From NCBI GenBank assembly GCA_964016885.1, contig OZ024742.1, positions 256,246,001-256,310,000 on the forward strand: 64,000 nt of DNA, read 5' to 3'. Every line of letters begins with the position of its first letter. Positions within the stretch are counted from its first letter, which is position 1. The notes beneath the pieces are model-generated. The model did not search any database, was not told the origin of the DNA, and saw only the letters and a program-made list of their open reading frames with translations. Both the position numbers and the translations under genes were made by a program. This DNA is from Eledone cirrhosa (lineage: Eukaryota). Of this stretch, positions 1,795 to 61,385 are shown one piece after another.

Positions 1795-2675
1795 TATATA
1801 TATATATACATATATATATATATATATATATATATATACATATATATAAATATATATATATATACATATATATAAATATATATATATATACATATATATA
1901 TATATATATATATACATATATATATATACATATATACATATATATATATATATATATATATATACATATATATATATATATAAATATATATACATATATA
2001 TATATATATATATATATATATATACATATATATATATATATATATACATATATATACATATATATATACATATATATATATATATATATATATATATATA
2101 TATACATATATATATACATATATATATATATATATATATACATATATATATATATATATATACATATATATATATATATATATATACATATATATATACA
2201 TATATATATATATATATATATACATATATATATATATATATATACATATATATATATATATATATATACATATATATATATATATATATATATATATATA
2301 TACATATATATATATACATATATATATATATATATATATATACATATATATATATATATATATATACATATATATATATATATATATATATATACATATA
2401 TATATATATATATATATATATACATATATATATATATATATATATATATACATATATATATATATATATATATATATACATATATATATATATATATATA
2501 TATATACATATATATATATATATATACATATATATATATATACATATATATATATATATACATATATATATATATATATATATATATATATATACATATA
2601 TATATGTATACATATATATATGTATACATATATATATATATATATATATATACATATATATATATATATATATAT
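1795..2675. repeat. about 880 bp (TA)n microsatellite with interspersed CA units
   Basis: Direct reading. It generates the YIYI pseudo-ORFs at 1679-2655. Confidence 0.97.
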
Positions 2676-2764
2676 AGGAGTAAGTAAGACCCCGACGGCT
2701 CAGCTCAAGCCGTTTCGACGTCGAAACGGCTTGAGCTCAGCCGTCGGGGTCTTACTTGTTCTTA
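2675..2764. mobile_element. palindromic mini-element (family X) carrying the 3' half of a hammerhead on each arm
   Basis: Near-perfect palindrome centred on TTTCGACGTCGAAA. The right arm reads GAAAC-GGCTTGAGCTCAGCC-GTC and the left arm differs by one base. Flanked by (TA)n. Relatives lie at 14523-14717 and 35661-35862. Confidence 0.8.
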
Positions 2765-3419
2765 TATATATATATATATATATACATATATATACATATA
2801 TATATATATATATATATATATACATATATATATATATATATATATTTATATATATATATTTATATATATATATGTGTATATATATACATATATATATACA
2901 TATATATATATATATATATTTATATATATATATATATATATATATATATATATATATATATATATATATTCTAATATAGAAAAGATTCTACAGAGCATTC
3001 TCACGAATGAAACAATTTTGGTCCTGTAGAAGCTTTTCTATATTAAAACATTTATACTCTGCTATGTATTGAGTACCTTACTTACTGTGGTTACCCCGAG
3101 TCAACCCGGAATAACTTATATATATATATAGAATAAGAAAATGCGAAGTAGTTTCAGATGTTAAAGCCCTTTATTGATAATGCTGTGGTACATATTTTAA
3201 TGACGAGAGTGGCCACACGACTCCCAGTGCCATGACATCACCAGACAGCTTCTTATGTAATAAGGTTACGTTCCCGAGGCAATCATAATTGAAACGACAA
3301 GGGAACAGACAAAGCGTGTGTTCCTGAATCCTTCGCCCGGAACGTAACCTGTCTGATGAGGTACGAACATGCCAAACTAGAACACGAGTGTTAAATTAAT
3401 AACGGAAATAAAGAACATA

Positions 3420-3900
3420 ATCAGACATAGATCTGACGCAACATTCAGTCAATTACGGAGGTCACTCACCTCATAGAAGATAGTCCAAGCCTGAATAAAA
3501 AATAAGAGTGGAATAGTAACAACCCGCAATTTAATGACGGAAGACAGAATATAATCACAAAGAAAAAAACAAGACACAAACAGCAAGACCCCAAACTATA
3601 TAAAGGCACACACATATAAAACATTCGTAGACATGGCAAATACACACAGAAACGCAGTACAGACACAAGACCAACACAAATTGCACCACCAATTAAACAA
3701 AGAAAATAGTGAGTAGAAATTTAAGTCCACGGAAAGAGGAGACAGAAAACAAATAATCAAAGAATGTGTGACGAAAGAACTTTGAAAAACTAATGAATAA
3801 CGAACAATAGAGATGGATTGAAAATTATATTGTGCACGTGTTTCTTTCTATTGGCAGTTTTGGCAACATGGCCATCCCTAAATATAACATTGTTCCAACT
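3420..3900 (+). mobile_element. degenerate 3' end of a Penelope-like element (ORF C-terminus plus pLTR)
   Basis: Translates ...EDSPSLNKK*EWN, a PLE-like C-terminal P-x-LN motif. GTGACGAAAGAACTTTGA and TTGGCAACATG..CC.TCCC match the hammerhead-bearing repeat at 34975-35280. Confidence 0.55.
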
Positions 3901-4156
3901 CGTTACCAAGCCTACCTAACTGTTTATCCTGTTTACCCTCTTTATGTTCGATTTGTTTACTTTACTTGAACATCCTTTATTTCTGTTTCTCGTTTATGAT
4001 CATGTCTCTAGTTTGTACTTTTAAAGAACGGATTAAGCCTGACACGTCAGAATTTCCCTCCCTTTCCCATATAATGCGTTAAACTAATAAGACTTGTTGT
4101 ACCTTTGTGTGTTGTCTCCTTGAACTATAAATATATATATATATATATATATATAT

Positions 4157-4440
4157 AAGTGTGAAGAACAGTCAAACAAAATGTATCCAATTCTTTTCTT
4201 CCTTAGTCCCTAGAAACCAACCAGATAAATAATCATTTAAACGGAGCTAAGTTTAAAATGTAACTTTGAAGAAATAACAGATAAATATTGCAGACTTTCC
4301 TCTGTGAGGAACAGGCAGATAAAATGTACCTAGTCTTTCCTCTTAGTCCGTAGAAATTAACTTGACAAATAATCAATTAAACGGAGCTACGTCTAAAATA
4401 TAAGTCTGAAGAAAAAAATATAGATAAACATTACCAAAAA
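4157..4440 (+). repeat. diverged tandem duplication of about 145 bp
   Basis: TGTGA.GAACAG...TTAGTCC.TAGAAA...AAACGGAGCTA occurs twice (about 4160 and about 4303). Confidence 0.75.
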
Positions 4441-4447
4441 TTCTTGT

Positions 4448-4535
4448 AGTCCCGACTATTGATAGTTTCGCTCGTACTTTGTGGATATGTCTAATCGTAG
4501 CATTATCCATGAGGCTTCGAGCTTTTCAAGTCACT
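4448..4535 (-). ncRNA. degenerate type I hammerhead relic
   Basis: Minus strand: TTGAAAA (decayed CUGANGA), GCTCG...CGAGC stem II, GAAA, CTATCAATAG stem III, GUC triplet. Confidence 0.5.
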
Positions 4536-58254: not shown

Positions 58255-58830
58255 TTTGACATGTGGAAACGCTACTTGGAGGCTGCCTCATTCTATGGAC
58301 GCACACACTTGACCAAATCGATGAATTGAAGACACAAATCAACAGCATCAATAATAATATCAAATTCGCAACGGAATTTAGTCAAAAGCAAATTCCATTC
58401 CTGGACACACATTTCCAAATTGACATTCACCATAAACCAAGATATTCTAAACAAAGATTTCCTTTTCAGCTCAAGTCACCCGAAACACACGATCACAAAT
58501 ATTGCCTTTAATCTAGCATGAAGAATCTCTACAATTGTCTCGAATTATGGAACTTGGAGTAAAAGACTCAAAGAACTAACATAAATTCTACTTGAAAGAC
58601 AAAATGCATCATTATTAATAGACATTGGAACAGAACGTATCAAATCAATATACATTCAAGAATTACGATTAACAAAAACAACTCCATGCAATAGTTTACC
58701 CTATATATTAACTCACAATCAAAGAAATGGAGAAGCATACACTATTCACAAGAACATCCAACAGGAACCCGAAATGAAAATAGAAATTGAAACAAAACAA
58801 TCAAAAGCAAACGACAACGAAAAATGCTTA
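58255..58830 (+). pseudogene. old Penelope-like RT relic
   Basis: CLILWTHTLDQIDELKTQINSINNNIKFATEFSQKQIPFLD aligns with CFIIWTESLDTLDEFNILLNNLHPSLQFTKEMSRTKLPFLD. Confidence 0.8.
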
Positions 58831-59048
58831 GAAACTACTCAGTAGCACCGCGATACTCACGCTTTTTTATCCAAAAGCACCGCCAACTTTAGTTTCTAAT
58901 TACGTGATGAAGGGCAGTCTATCAAATTATACTTTAAAATTGAGCCACTTTTCACTGCGAAAGAAAATGCATGTTTACTTATATTATAATAGTATGTTAT
59001 AATAGAAAGAAAAACCTAGGTAGAATTTTGAATATGATTTACAATAAA

Positions 59049-59235
59049 TAATTGTTTCTACTTTAGGCACAAGGCCAGCAATTACCCAGTGCATTACTGG
59101 TACTCTATTTTATCGACCTCGTAAGGATGAAAGGTTAAGTCAACCTCGGCGGGATTTGAACTCAGATCGTAAAGGGACGTAACTATGCTGGAAAGCATGG
59201 CGTCCGACTCTCTACCGATACTGCCCATCTACCCA
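59049..59235 (-). mobile_element. full-length SINE family 1
   Basis: Near identical to 30261-30443. Confidence 0.9.
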
Positions 59236-59324
59236 CTGTGATCGAAGATTTGTAACCCACTAAGACTTAGCGCAGTAGACGCACCTTTTACTCTTTACAC
59301 TGTTGATGTCAAATTTATACAGAT

Positions 59325-60060
59325 AATATGGGATGCCATCCATGGCAACAAGGCCTCGGTCAGGCTAGCGCACCAGCTCACCTCACATTACCAGTAACAC
59401 CTCGCATGTTTTCACTCGAACCGCGCACGTTACAGCTATGCCTGGCTCAAAGCTTTAACTTCCTGTTCAACTGTTACTAGCTGGATAATGATAGACAGCG
59501 AATCAGGGTTTCCCTAAGATTTGGCCTCCAGATCTGAGAACCACATAAATGCCGCTGCAGATTCACCGTAGACTCTTTCAGCATCCACTCGCCCTTCTGC
59601 CGCTACAGTGACGGTCACCGTCCTCAGCATGCTGTTATCAATGAGGTCATCAATCATGCCTGGGATGGCGTAGATTTCCCCACCCAGTTCGAGTCGCTGG
59701 AACTAGACCGAGGTGAGAGCAAAAGGCCAGATAGTAAACCCCGTTATCTGGTATGCCACATGCAGTGGCACATTCTCCAGCGGCATCCTGTTGCAGTCTG
59801 CGACTAACACAGACTCTGCTGCATGTCGGGCCGAGAAAAGTATATTCTCCACATATCGGTCGCTCTCCAACAGGTTTCCAGTGACAGTGGTATCCTTGAT
59901 CATGCTCACTACTTCGGCACAGATTTGGTTACTCGGAGGTGTGAACCTTGCGAGTTGGAATGTCTTTTTCAGCACGCCTCCCTCATCATCCACCGAGGAA
60001 ACGGCTTTTCTATTCTGTCCGACGGTGTCGCTGGGCGGCTCGTGTGTTGGCGTGCATTTG
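59325..60060 (+). mobile_element. diverged CRE-like 3' fragment
   Basis: Colinear with about 25345-26110 (TGGGATGCCATCCA, GGTTTCCCTAAG, AAAAGGCCAGAT, GTCTGCGACT). Confidence 0.75.
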
Positions 60061-61182
60061 CGCACAATAGAGAGAGATGGGTAGAGTGGGAGAGACGGAC
60101 GCAGTGACCATGGGAGTTTCGTTCATCTGTGTTCGGACCTGGTGTATATTTATGTTCTCCCAGAAACAAAATGTATGTGAGTGGACCAAGCATAATAATA
60201 AAAATCGAGATTATATATCGAGGTCTAATTAAATACATACTGTTAATGTGTTTATAAGCATGTAGAGGTCTCAAAAAGATTAAGCGAAAACTAAGAAACA
60301 ATATTTGTAAATACGAGGGCTATCGCCAGTATACAGAAATTGACAATGTACGGTAGATAACATTTGTTGAAGAATTAATGTTTAACTAGAGTTATATTCT
60401 GGTGACAATCAATTTTTGTTACTGAAGTTCTACAAAAATTACAATAACACCGATTAGGTATAAATTAGAAATATATACTTGAGGATAATGAATTAAATAT
60501 GAAGGGAATTTAACAATATAATATTTATATATTTGAATTAAAGACTTACATTATTAATAAAGAAAATAACTTATTATTTAAGAAGATAACACAACCACCA
60601 GACTTTAGTTCCCGTGATATAAACATAACAAAATATATAAAAATGTATTTCTTTAAAAATATGTTTACGCTCAAATTACAATTATTTACCTACAATAACA
60701 CATCAAATAAAATGAACAATTTTCCATCAATTTTTGTTTTGATGAATTAATTCATTTAAAAGAGAACTATAGAATTGAATATATGTTTAATTTAAACCAA
60801 CATATATTAATAACACAACGAAGACTATATTTCATAAGTTCTTTTTATACGCAATTAGCCATAACTATTTCTGTAGTGAGATCCTTGGTTGACGATACCA
60901 TGGCGGGACTTTTACAGATGACCCAATTTTGTCTAAGTAACTCTATTGCGTATGTAGAAAAACGTTTAGTAGAGGGAAGTTTATTTCCATAAAAATTCAT
61001 TACAATGCCTGACAGATGGATAACATAATCGGCAATCTAAAGAATTATTGTCATATGTTGCGTCATGACACCACGACGTAAACTTTTTCTCCGCAGAAAT
61101 ATGTAGCAAGGTTAATTGCATAATTAAATAACTTATGGAATCTACACACACACACACACACACATTATATATATATATATAT

Positions 61183-61385
61183 ATTCATTAAAATAACAGA
61201 TTAAAATTTAAGCAAAGAATCGCTGCTTTCACTCGTAACGGGATCTTCTGAAACCCGTTAAGTGTGAAAGCAGCGATTATTTGCTTAAACTTTAATCTGT
61301 TATTTTAATAAATATTCGGTCTAGGGTTCTTATATATTTGATATATATTTATCCTTATCGAGTCCTCTTGTATTTACCTATCTAT
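61183..61385. mobile_element. family Z fold-back mini-element with tail
   Basis: Arms about 61183-61242 and 61253-61313. The tail is homologous to 30720-30780. Confidence 0.85.

Follow-up and report, generated by a model that had tools for sequence, protein, structure and literature searches.

How do short palindromes of unrelated sequence come to lie again and again in (TA)n microsatellites, and are they mobile elements in their own right or products of Penelope-like elements (PLEs)? This question is raised by a 64,000-nt stretch of the Eledone cirrhosa genome (hereafter the window; GenBank assembly GCA_964016885.1, contig OZ024742.1, positions 256,246,001–256,310,000, forward strand), in which a first-pass annotation suspected a multi-family, non-coding hairpin retroelement system. 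We refer to a head-to-head pair of arms in (TA)n as a cassette, to a short 3' end as S and to a tailed 3' end as T. Ten families were distinguished: A (at 8692), B (14523, 35661 and 2675), C (30583 and 61183), D (11778), E (34627), F (43658), G (46324), H (14728), P (51492) and Q (38817). We found that cassettes with both ends at fixed sites nearly always have one S and one T end, and that the small cassettes of five families are, by the frames upstream of them, pieces of PLEs rather than an independent hairpin system.

Comparison of the window with itself revealed inverted repeats at or close to every position named in the first-pass annotation; 16 local inverted matches were found in the window masked for simple repeats vs none in each of 20 Markov-resampled windows. 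In arm-versus-arm alignments, one arm enters (TA)n and its partner goes on further. The claim of at least nine unrelated inverted repeats was borne out: all listed loci were inverted repeats, and the 3' ends of the ten family references were mutually dissimilar by blastn, the few cross-hits being all internal. An S/T pair of ends was present in 11 of 13 window loci (the 12 named ones and 2675), in agreement with the description of one arm as short and the other as tailed in nearly all of them; the exceptions were 2674–2765 and 43655–44183, the left arm of the latter ending ~140 nt short of the usual S end of family F. Tails were present as described, but with a range of 32–170 nt across families (~108 nt in family A) instead of 40–200 bp. 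Similarly, the cassette placed at 8692 is real but extends from 8337 to 9064, and the (TA) at 8544–8554 sits within its monomer. Four cassettes had been overlooked (16083–16697, 32213–32954, 35898–38670 and 46709–46830).

Arm ends were tallied in 1.8 Mb of overlapping loci together with the window. Rather than falling at random places, 3' ends were sharply bimodal at fixed sites in every family. Among 315 unique head-to-head events, 14 reached the edge of the locus and, in 70, one or both ends missed the fixed sites; the remaining 231 comprised 224 S/T, 3 T/T and 4 S/S events, and one of the three T/T cases was a tandem ending at S. This tally used an earlier reference for family A, which was recounted separately with a corrected one: 7 of 11 events had one end per site and none had both alike. 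In family F, with four rows of a related family set aside, 14 of 25 events had one end per site, one was T/T and ten had an odd end. Fourteen C ends that seemed to lie inside the tail were rejected as alignment overrun into (TA)n. Genome-wide, family B showed 21,116 tailed vs 21,093 short ends, the two end types being counted separately and not as whole cassettes by class. The tail continues into the next open reading frame (ORF) in PLE tandems, or into the next monomer, which places S as well as T inside a tandem RNA. The earlier contrast between a true end and an internal site was therefore not supported. The suggestion in the first-pass annotation that one reaction, starting at two sites on each template, produces both the small cassettes and the large PLE loci was supported; two sites bounding the tail have already been described in vitro (PMC11167929). 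TAT follows most S and T sites in the element, matching the TA-rich target. We also noted that in Hydra-type families both start sites (B and C) or the S site (G, D and Q) are followed by TAT, 2–5 nt and purine-CTC, with a matching GAG downstream of purine-CTC in B, C and G (read at L032:3907–4020, L234, L229 and L240 among the retrieved loci, and at 43453–43480 of the window). It is possible that this pattern is a twin signal for the start of reverse transcription.

The two arms of a cassette also share sequence letters. As the first-pass annotation had proposed, arm-to-arm divergence was compared with copy-to-copy divergence in family B, and the arms were closer: 3.3% within vs 10.3% between cassettes. 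B arms agreed at five diagnostic columns in 74–76 of 78 cases (expected, 34–61%), and agreement in C, G, E and F exceeded nearly all of 2,000 permutations; family D, with three cassettes, did not pass this test. The arms were unequal in length. Among the 224 S/T cassettes, the S arm reached further 5' by at least 10 nt in 100 and the T arm in 36, the other 88 being within 10 nt (S-over-T bias 100:36, p = 4e-8). With a probability of about two in three, we read each cassette as one PLE insertion with one arm per fixed site, in which both strands of a TA-rich target were cut by the PLE protein and each of the two cut ends then served to start a copy of one and the same RNA. A protein dimer would bind near the tail and cut both strands; one cDNA would be primed at S (before the tail) and one at T (after it) on the same RNA, through the TAT that follows most sites; and the two cDNAs would then be joined at their far ends, giving head-to-head arms. 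If, as we suppose, transcription begins within the pseudo-long terminal repeat (pLTR) and S and T are close to the 5' end of the resulting RNA, most events would run off and leave a palindrome of 200–400 bp. Run-off after 60–200 nt of shared sequence would give the minimal palindrome, and read-through RNA (tandem or circular) would yield long arms, tandems and full copies. The T-primed enzyme would have to displace the S-primed cDNA ahead of it, which would fit the greater reach of S arms. The tandem units of families A, F and H would borrow the same enzyme.

Parents of the small families were sought by fetching long inverted pairs and tandems from the genome. Frames for reverse transcriptase (RT) and GIY-YIG lay at a constant distance upstream of the B end in 4 of 4 long pairs (1.2–1.35 kb) and of the D end in 4 of 4 loci (1.1–1.2 kb). 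They were also present upstream of the C end in 3 of 4 loci, of the E end in 3 of 4 by tblastn (long ORFs in 4 of 4) and of the G end in 1 of 3, a second G locus having the same 3' region. By these frames, the small cassettes of B, C, D, E and G are 3' ends of ORF-bearing PLEs (four Hydra-type and one Neptune-like), and the concern that the families might be unlinked to any PLE ORF was allayed. Unit sizes were ~3.1 kb in B, ~3.3 kb in C and 4.15 kb in E. Long frames with RT motifs were found for B, C and E; those of D and G were broken or partial. A Pfam search matched GIY-YIG in the P frames and gave no match in the Q frames. The B and C proteins have RW(R), DKT, CxCx5C, CxxC and CxH motifs and lack CCHH. 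In G and Q, the CxCx5C linker was the only Hydra-clade motif seen, and D, too decayed to read, was placed with the Hydra-type families by protein similarity to Q alone. P and E are probably Neptune-like because they have a Cx4CxxC linker with CCHH-type cysteines. Apart from that of D, these provisional assignments go by motifs. The PLE families show pLTRs from partial tandems, an inverted 5'-truncated copy and an optional tail; no tandem copies of D, G or Q parents were seen in the loci examined. In family E (L235 and L237), a long asparagine-rich stretch lies ahead of RT, and L235 has the ORF divided between two overlapping frames; asparagine-rich inserts are also known in rotifer Penelope elements, at positions other than in family E (PMC3846280).

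Families A, F and H appear to be non-autonomous, retrozyme-like tandem non-coding units of 315–476 bp (GC 35%), in which the repeating unit is the monomer and not the hairpin. Family F forms monomers of 427–429 bp, with 16 pattern matches in one array and a longest ATG frame of 58 aa; A forms dimers of a 476-bp unit (longest ATG frame 72 aa), and H, repeats of ~315 bp. The first-pass annotation had been unable to choose between 5' truncations and self-propagating non-autonomous elements. Five families are by-products of autonomous PLEs, and the non-autonomous alternative applies to A, F and H, but as monomers. Exact-motif counts in the 3.0-Gb genome were 38,075 for B, 28,271 for C, 5,182 for E, 2,385 for G, 1,547 for F, 196 for D, 50 for A and 11 for H; each refers to a single exact motif per family and is not a copy number, and reversed controls all gave 0. 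A further family related to F (L147, L185, L203 and L241) has small head-to-head pairs with another 3' sequence.

Hammerhead ribozymes were searched for with a custom descriptor, loosened after a stricter first version, in 30 loci per family and in the window copies. Matches were obtained in 19 C, 16 G, 12 F, 5 A and 3 B loci and in the window copy of P, but in none of the 30 D or 30 E loci and not in the window copies of H and Q; the hammerheads mentioned in the first-pass annotation thus have putative counterparts in B, C, A, F, G and P. The B matches were long copies only and of the U3-A8 variant, minimal B cassettes holding only the 3' part of the motif without the 5' half of the ribozyme core. 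The C hammerhead has an atypical second core base, and in H a hammerhead was discerned by eye in one locus only. A search of Rfam returned no hammerhead, only microRNA-like hairpin matches below threshold. Fold-back at hammerhead stem II was considered and rejected, since the turn point has no constant place relative to the ribozyme. Outside the ten families, more hammerhead-core-like motifs were seen in the window at 44855 (−), 62043 (−) and 3353 (+), which suggests that further PLE or retrozyme families may be present.

Many arms also stop at one 5' position, which we call the wall. The proportion of arms at risk that ended in a single 12-nt bin was 173/209 in B, 25/52 in G, 8/12 in P and 42/126 in C (the tally omits family E arms at −25 and −22, which likely belong to a divergent subfamily). 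A TATA-like box was present 29–33 nt upstream of the wall in B, G and P, where the wall itself lies at what we take to be an initiator-like site. The 19-mer just upstream of the B wall had 3,945 genome matches, compared with 38,075 for the 22-mer just downstream. Among the first 100 past-wall B matches listed, 58 fell in 29 head-to-head pairs, even though ~10% pass overall; passage of the wall therefore belongs to the event and not to the arm, which an RNA 5' end would explain more readily than would a stop signal. In family P, the near full-length copy (53028–57484) also starts at the wall. These observations point to the pLTR wall as the probable 5' end of the transcript, with a predicted start in B at position 3849 of locus L032, in G at 1391 of L229 and in P near 53026–53028 of the window. 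Raw reads from three restriction site-associated DNA (RAD) runs of other samples, which share their species label with the best-matching runs, bear on this prediction: 8 of 13 opposite-strand B joints began at 3848–3852 of L032, within 3 nt of it. Across the predicted start of G, where no cut site intervenes, read depth rose from 276, 215 and 200 to 531, 515 and 370. No RNA run was among those listed as containing family B.

The strongest competing explanation retains twin priming and differs in the wall, which would reflect either a halt of RT at structured RNA or at a protein on it, or the outcome of deletions at the palindrome centre; the cassettes would then be ordinary 5' truncations. The B wall does lie within hammerhead loop II and that of C where stem I begins, PLE insertions can be very short (Chlamydomonas median 128 bp, PMC9977147), and many junctions show 1–6 nt of microhomology. 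However, the position of the wall relative to the hammerhead is inconstant (in G and P it is ~40–55 nt upstream of the core), so that the ribozyme cut site was rejected as its cause, and an independent stop would not let both arms pass together. The P copy that begins at the wall is a further difficulty. On balance we consider this explanation unlikely.

A second possibility, raised in the first-pass annotation for cDNA, is snap-back or self-priming, by which one cDNA or antisense RNA would fold at a short palindrome, be copied into the second arm and then be cut or joined at S. It would explain the shared letters of the arms and the 88 nearly symmetric cassettes, and some cassettes do turn at natural short palindromes. 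But in the 100 cassettes with a longer S arm, this arm holds sequence that is missing from the T arm, up to kilobases (35898–38670 and 32213–32954). In addition, ~31 T arms consist of tail only and have no overlap with the partner arm; two of these are in the window, one with a 2.7-kb S arm. They remained after inspection of 36 such calls and removal of five (three from a divergent B subfamily and two internal deletions). Snap-back of a tailed cDNA would need large later deletions in all of these cases, and the deletions would also have to produce the 100:36 bias; it is thus quite improbable. Tail-only arms ending exactly at S were looked for, and no clear pile-up was found.

It is also conceivable that two separate RNA-protein particles prime the two sides of the break, the agreement of arms being due to bursts from a single source or to later conversion. 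In favor of this, the arms of 2674–2765 carry different subfamily letters, and a few diagnostic columns disagree between arms elsewhere. However, two particles should give S/S and T/T together about as often as S/T, compared with 7 of 231 observed, and passage of the wall is common to both arms; we regard this model as very improbable. That the small palindromes are self-propagating, non-autonomous hairpins resembling miniature inverted-repeat transposable elements (MITEs), a possibility left open in the first-pass annotation, is largely refuted. The very high copy number and tight modal size of B might suggest it, but 56 distinct junctions were found among 64 parsed B cassettes (31 of 95 were unparsed) and none was seen more than three times, which indicates that palindromes are made afresh each time and not copied from one another; sizes grade continuously into ORF-bearing copies, and whole hairpins repeated in tandem were not noted among the loci read. 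Finally, although microsatellite palindromes are hard to assemble, an assembly or chimeric-read artefact is highly unlikely: the arms differ in sequence and end structure, thousands of RAD reads leave family B for (TA)n at S and at T, and both fixed ends and opposite-strand joints recur in reads of three other samples, albeit not of the window loci.

Several observations weigh against the reading of one insertion copied twice from one RNA that starts at the wall. Loci were centered on motif matches and some long pairs were chosen deliberately, so that the sample is non-random, and in 70 of 301 events at least one end misses the fixed sites. Agreement of the arms could stem from conversion between them or from two RNAs of one source copy, and deletions at the palindrome centre could produce part of the asymmetry. 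The wall is weak or absent in D (top bin 6/33) and E (10/77), the wall of C lacks a suitably spaced TATA-like box, and the TATA spacing was noticed post hoc. In the reads, a probable restriction cut at 3856 confounds the depth step in B, which was not used as evidence, and no opposite-strand joint was listed at the predicted G start. In Drosophila virilis Penelope, transcription is driven by an internal TATA-less promoter within the pLTR (PMC2377424). Moreover, Frangieh et al. did not see the start site differ between strands, nor any homology of it to the target, in contrast to the TAT shared here (PMC11167929).

If one insertion is indeed copied twice from one RNA, a general rule for PLEs may be envisaged: a dimer on twin signals of one RNA would obligatorily prime one cDNA at each signal, from the two ends of one break. 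Transcripts started in the pLTR would then give only tiny run-off palindromes, of which family B alone would supply tens of thousands, the 5' edge of the pLTR would be the transcript start, full copies would need read-through or circular RNA, and retrozymes would exploit the system by being tandem. We offer this rule tentatively, at somewhat less than even odds; if true, one mechanism would underlie the tail, the inversion, the pLTR and the tandem arrangement in two PLE clades and in retrozymes. The genome holds tens of thousands of products of the PLE insertion reaction, which speak for twin priming of a single RNA and against the self-priming proposed in print, and the cassettes predict transcript starts to within a few bases. 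The footprint shared with A, F and H is structural evidence for PLE enzymes moving animal retrozymes. Repeat libraries would class these palindromes as MITEs or unknowns, though they are probably PLE by-products.

Table 1. Cassettes and PLE insertions in the window (positions in nt from the start of the window).
Position	Strand	Family	Structure
2674–2765	.	B	Cassette, exception: two S ends; arms differ in subfamily letters
8337–9064	.	A	Cassette (non-coding hammerhead unit of 476 bp, in tandem); minus arm exceeds one monomer in length; each fixed end used once
11776–12732	.	D	Cassette (putative Hydra-type PLE 3' end): S left, T right with 170-nt tail
14524–14717	.	B	Minimal cassette: T left (80-nt tail), S right; 5' wall ends both arms
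14720–15170	.	H	Cassette (~315-bp tandem non-coding unit): S left, 32-nt tail right
16083–16697	.	F	Partial dimer, minus strand, plus small inverted stub
30580–30805	.	C	Cassette (putative Hydra-type PLE 3' end): S left, 88-nt tail right
32213–32954	.	E	Insertion: 700-bp S arm and 23-nt tail-only arm, hence without inverted repeat
34626–34912	.	E	Cassette (3' end of 4.15-kb putative Neptune-like PLE); S arm extends further 5' than T arm
35661–35856	.	B	Minimal cassette: S left, T right
35898–38670	.	P	PLE insertion: 47-nt tail-only arm and 2.7-kb S arm bearing RT and GIY-YIG frames
38817–43592	.	Q	PLE (Hydra-type motifs), inverted arms: S left, 140-nt tail right; coding frames 39936–41506
43655–44183	.	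F	Cassette (427–429-bp tandem hammerhead unit): T right; left end off usual S site
46319–46692	.	G	Cassette (3' end of putative Hydra-type PLE, 1.7-kb 3' region): hammerhead motif per arm; 98-nt tail right
46709–46830	.	H	Small cassette, adjoined by further short arm
51490–57484	.	P	PLE, near full length: 1.5-kb S inverted arm; pLTR from 5' wall (53028); tail; coding frames; pLTR; tail
61181–61385	.	C	Cassette: S left, T right

Cassettes of unlike families cluster in each other's (TA)n flanks (window 1739–2969, 30523–30822 and 32189–35893); examples are C-B-P at 35530–38670 and B-H at 14524–15170. Around B cassettes within known repeats, (TA)n was longer than at paralogous empty sites, 185 nt vs a median of 11 nt in one case and 59 vs 8 in the other; these were the only two clean cases found (L010:1357–1543 and L002:1451–1623), and the microsatellite may grow at or after insertion. 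A 360-bp palindrome at 28567–29039, outside the ten families, has (TA)n inside both arms and a third partial arm. It is adjoined at 29037–29494 by a 460-bp repeat, a 90% alike copy of which (41933–42465) is inserted in PLE Q. Decayed coding fragments of other retroelements were present at 10463–11002, 24668–26247, 27140–28212 and 48986–51225, with a zf-RVT match at 48986–49888 below the Pfam cut-off. An abundant dispersed repeat of ~180 bp occurs at 12051–12165 (where it separates the arms of the family D cassette), 20534–21862, 23553–23950, 30255–30445, 59040–59233 and 62692–62877; it may resemble a cephalopod short interspersed nuclear element.

In twin priming of L1, two target ends prime two cDNAs on one RNA, resulting in an inversion. 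The second L1 primer, however, lands at variable sites upstream of the first cDNA, whereas here both sites are fixed and the cDNAs usually overlap. Closer parallels are provided by endonuclease-bearing (EN+) PLEs, for which head-to-head copies with a tail at one end have been reported (Arkhipova et al. 2013, PMC3846280; Craig et al. 2021, PMC8557442). The cassettes resemble their inverted-pLTR forms in the head-to-head, 5'-truncated inverted copy, the one-sided tail, partial tandems and (TA)n targets, but have tails of 32–170 nt compared with 30–40 nt there; in addition, one-each coupling was counted here across ten families, unlike in earlier accounts of PLEs. Families B and C resemble the Hydra clade of C-terminal EN+ PLEs: their motifs lack CCHH, the unit measures close to 3 kb and the targets are (TA)n (Craig et al. 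2021). Self-priming on an antisense template was proposed in PMC3846280, and the asymmetry of arms argues against that model. For Poseidon of Anolis, it was shown in vitro that both strands are cut and extended, that two internal RT start sites bound the tail and that uncut RNA is the template, and a dimer was predicted (Frangieh et al. 2024, PMC11167929). The two start sites bounding the tail agree with our S and T; coupling of strand to site, a head-to-head product and a run-off model were not found in the available text of that paper.

Families A, F and H are comparable to animal non-LTR (long terminal repeat) retrozymes (Cervera and de la Pena 2020, PMC7229834; Li et al. 2026, 10.64898/2026.07.22.740005) in being low-GC, non-coding tandem units, and A and F match a type I hammerhead descriptor, as putative ribozymes. 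Family A slightly exceeds the reported range of 150–450 bp. The three families carry the two-end footprint of PLEs, which a word search of the available text of both retrozyme papers did not show; a PLE origin of retrozymes has been argued from phylogeny (10.64898/2026.07.22.740005). In Schistosoma, opposite-strand pairs of minimal hammerheads 100–700 bp apart were noted in passing, with the U3-A8 core variant also seen in family B, and, in the text available, neither the structure of their ends nor a mechanism was given (Cervera and de la Pena 2014, PMC4209133). Chlamydomonas also has short insertions of PLEs as well as non-autonomous ones (PMC9977147), and structures of the present kind were not described in the available part of an octopus repeat survey (PMC13282606). 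The origin of inverted and tandem PLE structures was stated to be open in PMC8557442, PMC2377424 and PMC11167929. One-each coupling and a run-off origin were not found in the literature searched, and subscription papers and supplements may hold them. The literature on PLEs thus already records head-to-head arms, a tail on one side and a pair of RT start sites; to these traits the cassettes of E. cirrhosa add a strict one-each coupling of the two ends.

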